64,000 nt of DNA from the NCBI RefSeq assembly GCF_013167455.1, contig NZ_CP038328.1, one strand, 5' to 3'. The DNA comes from Escherichia coli O157:H7 (GTDB taxonomy: Bacteria; Pseudomonadota; Gammaproteobacteria; Enterobacterales; Enterobacteriaceae). A program made the position numbers. This document shows, piece by piece, positions 21,001 to 24,000 of the stretch. Numbering within the stretch: the first letter of the stretch is position 1; each line of letters opens with the position of its first letter.

Positions 21001-24000
21001 TGCAACAGGAGCAGAACCATGGCTAATCTGAGCGGCTACAACTTTGCCTACCTCGACGAGCAGACCAAACGCATGATCCGCCGCGCCATCTTAAAAGCGG
21101 TGGCGATCCCCGGTTATCAGGTGCCGTTTGGCGGGCGCGAGATGCCAATGCCGTACGGCTGGGGAACCGGCGGCATTCAGCTTACCGCCAGCGTGATTGG
21201 CGAAAGCGACGTGCTGAAGGTGATTGACCAGGGCGCGGATGACACCACCAACGCCGTGTCGATTCGCAACTTCTTTAAGCGCGTGACCGGGGTAAACACC
21301 ACCGAGCGCACGGACGATGCAACGGTCATCCAGACGCGTCACCGCATCCCCGAAACGCCGCTGACCGAAGATCAGATCATTATTTTCCAGGTGCCGATCC
21401 CCGAACCGCTGCGCTTTATCGAGCCGCGCGAAACGGAAACCCGCACCATGCACGCGCTGGAGGAATACGGCGTGATGCAGGTGAAGCTGTATGAAGATAT
21501 CGCCCGCTTCGGTCATATCGCCACCACCTACGCCTATCCGGTGAAGGTGAACGGGCGCTACGTAATGGACCCGTCGCCGATCCCGAAATTCGATAACCCG
21601 AAAATGGACATGATGCCCGCCCTGCAACTCTTCGGCGCCGGGCGTGAGAAGCGCATCTATGCGGTGCCGCCGTTTACCCGCGTGGAAAGCCTCGATTTCG
21701 ACGATCACCCGTTCACCGTTCAGCAGTGGGATGAGCCATGCGCCATCTGCGGATCGACCCACAGCTATCTTGATGAAGTGGTGCTGGATGACGCCGGAAA
21801 CCGCATGTTTGTCTGCTCCGATACCGATTATTGCCGCCAACAGAGCGAGGCAAAAAGCCAATGAATCAACCGTTACTTTCGGTCAATAACCTGACCCACC
21901 TTTACGCGCCGGGCAAAGGCTTTAGCGATGTCTCTTTTGATTTATGGCCGGGGGAAGTGCTGGGCATTGTCGGGGAATCCGGCTCCGGGAAGACCACGCT
22001 GCTGAAATCAATTTCCGCGCGTCTGACGCCGCAGCAGGGGGAGATTCACTATGAAAACCGTTCCCTCTATGGCATGAGCGAGGCCGACCGCCGTCGCCTG
22101 CTGCGCACCGAATGGGGCGTAGTGCATCAGCATCCGCTCGACGGCCTGCGCCGCCAGGTCTCGGCAGGCGGCAATATCGGCGAGCGGCTGATGGCGACCG
22201 GGGCGCGTCATTACGGCGATATTCGCGCCACCGCGCAGAAGTGGCTGGAAGAGGTGGAAATTCCCGCCAACCGGATCGACGACCTGCCGACCACCTTTTC
22301 CGGCGGTATGCAGCAGCGTTTGCAGATTGCCCGCAACCTGGTGACGCATCCGAAGCTGGTGTTTATGGATGAACCGACCGGCGGGCTGGATGTGTCGGTG
22401 CAGGCCCGCCTGCTCGACCTGCTGCGCGGCCTGGTGGTGGAGCTGAACCTCGCGGTAGTGATTGTCACCCACGATTTAGGCGTCGCCCGCCTGCTGGCGG
22501 ACCGTTTGCTGGTGATGAAGCAGGGGCAAGTGGTGGAGAGTGGGTTAACCGACCGCGTGCTCGACGACCCGCATCATCCGTATACACAGCTGCTGGTGTC
22601 ATCGGTTTTGCAGAATTGAGCCGGTGCCGGATGCGGCGTAAACGCCTTATCCGGCCTACAAATGCGCTCCCCGTAGGTCGGATAAGACGCATCAGCGTCG
22701 CATCCGACACCCGAACCACGAGGCGAAAAATGATTAACGTACAAAACGTCAGTAAAACCTTCATCCTGCACCAGCAAAACGGCGTGCGCTTGCCCGTCCT
22801 CAACCGCGCCTCGCTCACCGTCAACGCGGGCGAATGCGTGGTGCTCCACGGCCACTCCGGCAGCGGCAAATCAACCCTGCTGCGCTCGCTGTACGCCAAC
22901 TATCTGCCCGATGAAGGGCAAATCCAGATCAAACACGGTGACGAGTGGGTAGACCTGGTCACTGCGCCAGCGCGCAAAGTGGTGGAAATCCGCAAAACCA
23001 CCGTTGGCTGGGTGAGCCAGTTTCTGCGCGTTATCCCGCGCATTTCGGCGCTGGAAGTAGTAATGCAGCCGCTGCTCGATACCGGCGTACCGCGTGAAGC
23101 CTGCGCCGCTAAAGCCGCGCGTCTGCTCACCCGTCTGAACGTGCCGGAACGCCTGTGGCGCCTTGCGCCATCGACCTTCTCCGGCGGCGAACAGCAGCGC
23201 GTCAACATCGCCCGTGGCTTTATCGTCGACTACCCCATTCTGCTGCTCGACGAACCTACCGCCTCGCTGGACGCCAAAAACAGCGCCGCCGTAGTCGAAC
23301 TGATCCGAGAAGCCAAAGCCCGCGGCGCAGCCATCGTCGGCATTTTCCATGACGAAGCCGTACGTAATGACGTCGCCGACCGCCTGCACCCAATGGGAGC
23401 CTCTTCATGATTATCAATAACGTCAAACTGGTGCTGGAAAACGAAGTGGTAAACGGTTCGCTGGAGATGCAGGACGGCGAAATCCGCGCCTTTGCCGAAA
23501 GCCAGAGCCGCCTGCCGGAGGCGATGGACGGCGAAGGCGGCTGGCTGCTGCCGGGGCTGATTGAGCTGCATACAGACAACCTCGATAAATTCTTCACCCC
23601 GCGCCCGAAAGTTGACTGGCCCGCCCACTCGGCGATGAGCAGCCATGACGCGCTGATGGTGGCGAGCGGCATCACCACCGTACTGGACGCCGTGGCGATT
23701 GGCGACGTGCGAGACGGCGGCGATCGGCTGGAGAATCTGGAGAAGATGATCAACGCCATCGAAGAGACGCAGAAACGCGGCGTCAACCGCGCCGAGCACC
23801 GCCTGCACCTGCGCTGCGAGCTGCCGCATAACACCACGCTGCCGCTGTTTGAAAAGCTGGTGCAGCGCGAGCCGGTGACGCTGGTGTCGCTGATGGATCA
23901 CTCGCCGGGCCAGCGCCAGTTCGCCAACCGCGAGAAGTATCGCGAATATTATCAGGGCAAATACTCGCTCACCGATGCGCAGATGCAGCAGTATGAAGAG

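Follow-up and report, generated by a model that had tools for sequence, protein, structure and literature searches.

Why should two palindromic elements interrupt an operon whose genes are otherwise packed end to end? The question is raised by the phnCDEFGHIJKLMNOP operon of Escherichia coli O157:H7, which lies, as a single phnC-P transcript on the plus strand, within a stretch of 64,000 nucleotides of contig NZ_CP038328.1 (assembly GCF_013167455.1), referred to below as the window; in the parts that were compared, it is 100% identical to O157:H7 chromosomes. In our gene models for the window, the gaps following each gene are +24 nt (phnC), +105 (phnD), +20 (phnE), 0 (phnF), -4 (phnG), -1 (phnH), -8 (phnI), -4 (phnJ), +110 (phnK), -4 (phnL), -1 (phnM) and +1 (phnO), negative values being overlaps; the gap after phnN is -4 by our model and -14 according to the K-12 annotation. 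All junctions other than phnD-phnE and phnK-phnL therefore overlap, abut or leave at most 24 nt. The original prediction, made from the sequence, had described tight coupling at most phn junctions with two exceptions that carry REP elements, at 17299-17390 and 22620-22714. This description is accurate: the two spacers measure 105 nt (phnD-phnE) and 110 nt (phnK-phnL), and a canonical REP pair is present in each. The features of the two junctions are the following.

16281 to 17297, plus strand: phnD, gene of the periplasmic phosphonate-binding protein, with its stop codon TAA at 17295-17297 (open reading frame list, translation, O157:H7 annotation).
17301 to 17337, plus strand: z2-like REP unit of the phnD-phnE spacer, 37 nt, GTAGGTCGGATAAGACGCCCCGGTGTCGCATCCGACA, hairpin of -18.1 kcal/mol (sequence, inverted-repeat search).
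17338 to 17352, no strand: linker of 15 nt between the non-GTAG (head) ends of the phnD-phnE units (sequence).
17353 to 17387, minus strand: y REP unit of the phnD-phnE spacer, 35 nt, its plus strand ending in ...CCGGCCTAC, GTAG on the minus strand, hairpin of -19.8 kcal/mol.
17393 to 18182, plus strand: Shine-Dalgarno sequence (GGAG, 17393-17396) and coding sequence of phnE, from the ATG at 17403 to 18182, intact in the window with 259 aa (sequence, translation).
21861 to 22619, plus strand: phnK, ABC ATPase of the C-P (carbon-phosphorus) lyase complex, with its stop codon TGA at 22617-22619 (sequence, open reading frame list, genome matches, translation).
22625 to 22659, minus strand: y REP unit of the phnK-phnL spacer, 35 nt, plus strand TGCCGGATGCGGCGTAAACGCCTTATCCGGCCTAC, GTAG on the minus strand, hairpin of -22.4 kcal/mol.
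22660 to 22672, no strand: linker of 13 nt, AAATGCGCTCCCC, between the GTAG (tail) ends of the phnK-phnL units (sequence).
22673 to 22709, plus strand: z2-like REP unit of the phnK-phnL spacer, 37 nt, GTAGGTCGGATAAGACGCATCAGCGTCGCATCCGACA, hairpin of -21.8 kcal/mol (sequence, inverted repeats, motif).
22720 to 23410, plus strand: Shine-Dalgarno sequence (GAGG, 22720-22723) and coding sequence of phnL, from the ATG at 22730 to 23410 (sequence, translation).

The answer that we favour, with moderate confidence, is that both pairs are canonical BIMEs that fill their spacers and probably grade expression along the operon by stabilisation, attenuation and uncoupling. In each spacer, one y and one z2-like unit stand in inverted orientation, the usual BIME arrangement, tail-to-tail at phnK-phnL and head-to-head at phnD-phnE. 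GTAG, or CTAC on the plus strand, is present in all four units, and their lengths of 35 nt (y) and 37 nt (z2-like) agree, as does this motif, with the y and z2 units described in PMC8266576. GTAG is reported to be essential for the TnpA-REP (RAYT) transposase (PMC8266576), and it is intact in the phn REP units. Every unit has the bulge that sets AA opposite GC (GGATAAG...CGCATCC), and the folds place an internal loop there. The z2-like units are a variant, because they read GTCGGAT in place of the GCCTGAT found in the z2 units of REP325, the array upstream of phnC. Both elements are wholly extragenic, lying between the stop codon and the next Shine-Dalgarno sequence: in both spacers the stems open 3-7 nt past the upstream stop codon and close 5-10 nt short of the downstream Shine-Dalgarno sequence. 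They are ordinary members of the long-known E. coli REP/BIME family, and their positions are already in the reference K-12 genome. The K-12 RefSeq annotation shows no repeat features over the phn stretch, and a literature search on the REP321-324 numbering returned unrelated matches only.

The repeats are not a chance likeness in sequence or in folding. The 14-nt REP tail motif, with up to one mismatch allowed, has 11 matches in the window for 0.01 expected, and a spacer query finds a median of 25 matching places per E. coli genome (megablast). Single units fold at -18 to -22 kcal/mol. In the mRNA sense, the spacers fold at -58.1 kcal/mol (z -5.8) and -48.9 kcal/mol (z -3.3) and no shuffle equalled either value; across units and pairs the z-scores run from -3.2 to -5.8. 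In the minimum-energy structure, the two units of a spacer are paired with each other as one long imperfect duplex. The Rfam model naRNA4 (RF02564), which is REP-derived and made of y and z2 units, matches the phnD-phnE pair with 63 bits over 17304-17384, above its gathering score of 59.5, whereas the phnK-phnL pair, in which the unit order is reversed and the GTCGGAT variant is present, reaches 37-43 bits over 22613-22709, below that score.

The strongest argument that one of these hairpins matters comes from comparison between species. Every junction was measured in 80 phnK loci, ranging from Enterobacteriaceae to alphaproteobacteria, with gene models made by tblastn and a hairpin cut-off of -15 kcal/mol or stronger. 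In most loci the genes overlap at the G-H, H-I, I-J, L-M and M-N junctions, and J-K overlaps in all Enterobacteriaceae-like loci; no element was found at these overlapping junctions in the surveyed loci. The phnD-phnE spacer is about 50 nt or longer in every locus, and 42 of 44 loci have a hairpin after phnD, compared with 38 of 211 at the other non-overlapping junctions (Fisher p = 3e-23). The sequences that form this hairpin are unrelated to one another. E. coli, Citrobacter and Cedecea have REPs there, and Leclercia, Kluyvera, Enterobacter and Pseudocitrobacter have BoxC elements; the hairpins of Hafnia, Photobacterium and Pseudomonas are private ones, and the stems of Brucella are terminator-like. 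The ACGGAGCCAAAC-ATG context of phnE is kept across enteric loci. Because the structure is conserved and the sequence is not, a hairpin after the binding-protein gene is likely to be under selection, and the phnD-phnE hairpin appears, from this comparison, to be an element of operon architecture kept by selection, which is built from REPs in E. coli by happenstance.

The picture at phnK-phnL is weaker. Most loci are bare there, with a gap of 0-28 nt, and hairpin elements occur in 16 of 79, in some lineages only. The enteric baseline is 7-10 nt (TGA-GAGGCNAAC-ATG), Citrobacter and Leclercia having the bare junction TGA-GAGGCGAAC-ATG, and GAGGCNAA(C/A)-ATG is kept before phnL in relatives that have no element at this site. 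Among Enterobacteriaceae-like loci the junction is occupied in 9 of 17, versus 4 of 29 at C-D, E-F and O-P (p = 0.007, a value that includes no correction for phylogeny). The two genes overlap in several Pseudomonas. Pseudomonas-type REPs (for example GTAGGAGC...GCTCCTAC) have also been inserted independently between phnK and phnL in several Pseudomonas and Stutzerimonas (L053, L054, L059, L062, L079), in the sister species of which the genes overlap.

Within E. coli, both junctions are dimorphic and hold either a REP pair or BoxC palindromes. The BoxC allele of phnK-phnL is found in 546 of 5,412 genomes (about 10%), where an inverted BoxC/PIT/TMECO pair of 160 bp replaces the REP pair, fills the space from the stop codon to just short of the Shine-Dalgarno sequence and folds at -100 kcal/mol. 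At phnD-phnE, one or two BoxC units occupy the spacer in 1,237 of 5,422 genomes (about 23%). The assignment rests on agreement of the phnK-phnL spacer of L002 and the phnD-phnE spacers of L004-L006 with the BoxC consensus (CCCTCNCCC-N3-6-GGGNGAGGG-N3-GGGNGAGGG) and with the sequences in Table 1 of PMC4666352. REP copy-number expansion was considered as the source of the longer spacers and rejected, the longer alleles of both junctions being of the BoxC family. A single linked BoxC haplotype of the operon was rejected too, as the alleles of the two junctions assort independently: strain 1070/13 has REP at phnD-phnE and BoxC at phnK-phnL, and strains 405 and IrN have BoxC at phnD-phnE together with a phnK-phnL gap of 110 nt that is REP-sized, as judged by its length alone. 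Synthetic empty-junction queries, with 59 records sampled evenly down the ranking, returned no empty site at either junction; since 0 of 59 were empty, genomes without an element should make up less than about 5%, provided that the sample is representative. The REP spacers also differ less between strains than the coding DNA beside them, with 10/550 differences (1.8%) against 141/2203 (6.4%) at phnK-phnL and 11/420 (2.6%) against 81/1585 (5.1%) at phnD-phnE, a low divergence consistent with purifying selection or with conversion between REP copies.

Several further observations concern these alleles. Two sampled records (H200, H202) have a phnD-phnE spacer of a third size class, which falls about 16 nt short of the REP allele. 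The 54-nt phnD-phnE gap of MG1655 was tried as a shorter REP locus and rejected: the sequence is that of the window bar one substitution, and only the annotated start of phnE1 differs. That start is an ATG at the boundary of the linker and the y unit (L001 11282, window 17352), 54 nt past phnD, and in other genomes the start is annotated at the ATG preceded by the Shine-Dalgarno sequence, 105 nt past phnD. The longer phnE1 start is probably an annotation artefact, because strains with the BoxC allele do not have that upstream sequence. In Pseudocitrobacter faecalis DSM 27453 (L007), PhnK is 99% identical to that of E. coli, above any Citrobacter or Enterobacter, and the spacers hold about four BoxC units at phnK-phnL (298 nt) and four at phnD-phnE (251 nt); this suggests that the phn operon was recently transferred between these genera, and it points to a possible origin for the BoxC alleles of E. 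coli. The phnK/phnL coding DNA of the window (22400-22950) is about 8% different from that of ATCC 11775, MS10711 and GF130 (L003, L088, L089). Such a divergence seems high within a species and could reflect recombination or the import of phn alleles.

From the identity, anatomy, stability and distribution of the elements, within the population and across species, all of which were observed here, we infer their effects on expression as follows. In the mRNA, each spacer would take the form of two hairpins of about -20 kcal/mol each or of one inter-unit duplex of -49 to -58 kcal/mol. By analogy with malE-malF and with REP325, these structures would most likely stall 3'-to-5' exonucleases, so that the phnCD and phnE-K segments would outlast those downstream, and would most likely cause partial termination without a T-tract, possibly assisted by Rho. 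Translational coupling would most likely be broken at both sites, and phnE and phnL would rely on their own Shine-Dalgarno sequences. The net outcome would be a graded expression, phnCD > phnE-K > phnL-P. An exonuclease barrier or attenuation leading to differential expression was also the role put forward in the original prediction; it accords with the established behaviour of REPs between tandem genes and is plausible here, with the comparative data speaking well for it at phnD-phnE and more weakly at phnK-phnL, where relatives have a gap of 7-10 nt and the element is found in a minority of loci.

The closest known system lies in the window itself, 2.5 kb upstream.

14648 to 14830, no strand: REP325 array of 4 units, between yjdM and yjdN and upstream of phnC (Rfam naRNA4, 105 and 98 bits).

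REP325, the source of naRNA4, resembles the phn REPs in being of the y/z2 family, here with the two unit types in alternation, between tandem genes and in the 3' region of the upstream gene. Its deletion at the native locus raises the downstream yjdN about 8-10 fold and lowers the upstream yjdM about 3-fold, and it has been shown to be a partial Rho-dependent terminator (in the full array only) and a stabiliser of the upstream mRNA. It is unlike the phn elements in being a long array, of 12 units in MG1655 and 4 here, whereas those are single pairs within a translated 14-gene operon. With 4 palindromic units in the window and 12 described for MG1655, REP325 varies three-fold in length among E. 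coli lineages. There are five REP loci in the window, at 14648-14830, 17301-17387, 22625-22709, 46361-46475 and 56953-57030, the last two with three and two units respectively.

The phnD-phnE element also resembles those of malE-malF and hisJ-hisQ, in which a hairpin directly follows the gene of the periplasmic binding protein in an operon for an ABC transporter. The intercistronic REPs of these operons are reported to be linked to an excess of binding-protein mRNA (Higgins 1982; Newbury 1987). The likeness does not extend to phnK-phnL, as PhnK is a cytoplasmic ATPase subunit and not a binding protein.

Genome-wide, the median log2 ratio of upstream to downstream expression is 0.96 for tandem gene pairs separated by REPs and -0.09 for controls, with a wide spread. 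In an RNA-seq study of K-12 under phosphate starvation, expression falls along the phn operon and a full-length phnC-P transcript is assembled; in the low-expression samples of the same study phnGHIJK and phnLMNOP are assembled separately, with a break at K/L. In a second K-12 dataset, PhoB-dependent expression is testable for phnC and phnD only, phnE-H being below the count filter. The MG1655 annotation gives phnE as a pseudogene (phnE1), so that polarity across the phnD-phnE REP is poorly reflected by RNA-seq from K-12.

A number of points weigh against graded expression as the role of the elements. The K-12 RNA-seq hints at it but is confounded, as REP reads multi-map, counts are low and the phnE frameshift is itself polar. 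REPs do not lengthen mRNA half-lives globally, REP325 fragments of 2-4 hairpins show no detectable Rho dependence, and BoxC (PIT), which replaces REPs in 10-23% of E. coli, is reported to have neither promoter nor terminator activity (PMC4666352). Conversion between REP copies, and not selection at the site, could be behind the conservation of the spacers. At phnK-phnL, close relatives have the bare 7-10 nt gap, and some lineages (L009, L011, L019) have degenerate single units only, without GTAG. Because of these bare gaps and degenerate units the phnK-phnL element is dispensable; its role, judged from these comparisons, is optional or neutral, the pair being a lineage-specific addition that probably has a tuning effect at most.

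One alternative, which we hold possible but doubtful and which is compatible with graded expression, is that the REPs limit translation of the genes before them: the terminating ribosome would have to melt the REP stem and would stall, and mRNA cleavage with rescue by tmRNA would lower PhnD and PhnK. The position of the stems speaks for it. According to the account of Liang, Rudd and Deutscher (2015) given in PMC12306157, REPs whose distance to the stop codon is below 16 nt, such as those of nrdAB, down-regulate translation and stall ribosomes; in the sequence and in the folds the phn stems begin 3-7 nt past the stop codon at both sites, within that distance. An effect of the nrdAB type, as that account presents it, is less upstream protein; predicted for phn, it would run opposite to the stabiliser model, and a lower amount of PhnD would be contrary to the usual excess of binding protein. 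The proximity to the stop codon, which the original prediction had overlooked, would thus partly oppose a role that favours the upstream genes.

A broader reading, on which we place similarly tentative weight, is that both spacers are functional hairpin slots, the stem-loop after phnD being a sequence-independent punctuation mark that is conserved across proteobacteria, and REP/BIME and BoxC being, in E. coli, interchangeable fillers of both slots, maintained in such a way that no strain is empty. BoxC/PIT/TMECO elements (PMC4666352) are comparable to the phn REPs in that they take up both phn spacers in other enterics and, within E. coli, in a minority, form inverted pairs of type A and type B and fold into very stable hairpins. 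They differ in belonging to an unrelated family (CCCTCNCCC..GGGNGAGGG..GGGNGAGGG) that has no known transposase and is absent from the window.

Somewhat less probable, in our estimate, is a neutral or selfish occupancy, by which REPs (through the TnpA-REP transposase) and BoxC would accumulate at tolerant junctions with no selected effect on phn expression. This would account for insertions that are all at non-overlapping junctions and never at overlapping ones, for a phnK-phnL site that about half of the close relatives leave empty and that holds degenerate GTAG-less single units in some, and for a REP/BoxC dimorphism whose alleles assort independently at the two junctions; BoxC loci are also hypervariable (PMC4666352), and REP locations differ between strains in the literature. 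It does not readily explain why a hairpin of unrelated sequence is nearly universal after phnD across proteobacteria (42/44), why phnK-phnL is filled more often than equally permissive junctions (p = 0.007), why none of the 59 sampled E. coli records is empty at either junction, or why the spacers are more conserved than the adjacent coding DNA.

A role at the level of DNA is unlikely. The y and z2-like composition of both elements is that of BIME-2, which could serve as DNA gyrase binding and cleavage sites, or as HU/cruciform sites, that relieve supercoiling in a long and strongly induced operon or organise the nucleoid, and gyrase cleavage of BIME-2 is said to have been described by Espeli and Boccard in 1997. 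In recent work, however, REP325 was found to cause no nucleoid compaction, to make no long-range REP-REP contacts and to have no HU dependence, and the trait that taxa have in common is a hairpin, of whatever sequence, that RNA can form, and not a gyrase motif; BoxC can also take the place of the REPs. Least probable is that the pairs are Rho-independent terminators that divide the operon into transcription units, since, despite the strong GC-rich hairpins and the phnGHIJK and phnLMNOP sub-transcripts of the low-expression samples, no T-run comes after either hairpin, the terminator scan has neither site among its 20 hits, a promoter scan gave no promoter-like or credible sigma-70 site before phnE or phnL, so that both an intrinsic terminator and an internal promoter were rejected at either junction, and the full-length phnC-P transcript is present under phosphate starvation.

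That REPs occur between tandem genes is textbook matter, already known, REP325 next to the operon has recently been dissected by experiment, and the phn pairs open no new question; what is modestly new is that a hairpin follows phnD almost universally, whatever its sequence, and that both junctions are dimorphic for REP and BoxC. These results are relevant to work on the expression of the phn operon and to RNA-seq across it, since REP reads multi-map. If both spacers are indeed hairpin slots, their alleles (the REP pair, BoxC in one, two or four units, and the empty sites found in sister genera) would constitute a natural experiment on the effects of REP and BoxC. If the polarity is real, the balance between binding protein and permease, and that between the PhnGHIJK core and the later enzymes, would be set in part by the hairpins, with no change in promoter or coding sequence, and the swapping of elements from strain to strain would supply regulatory variation at little cost.

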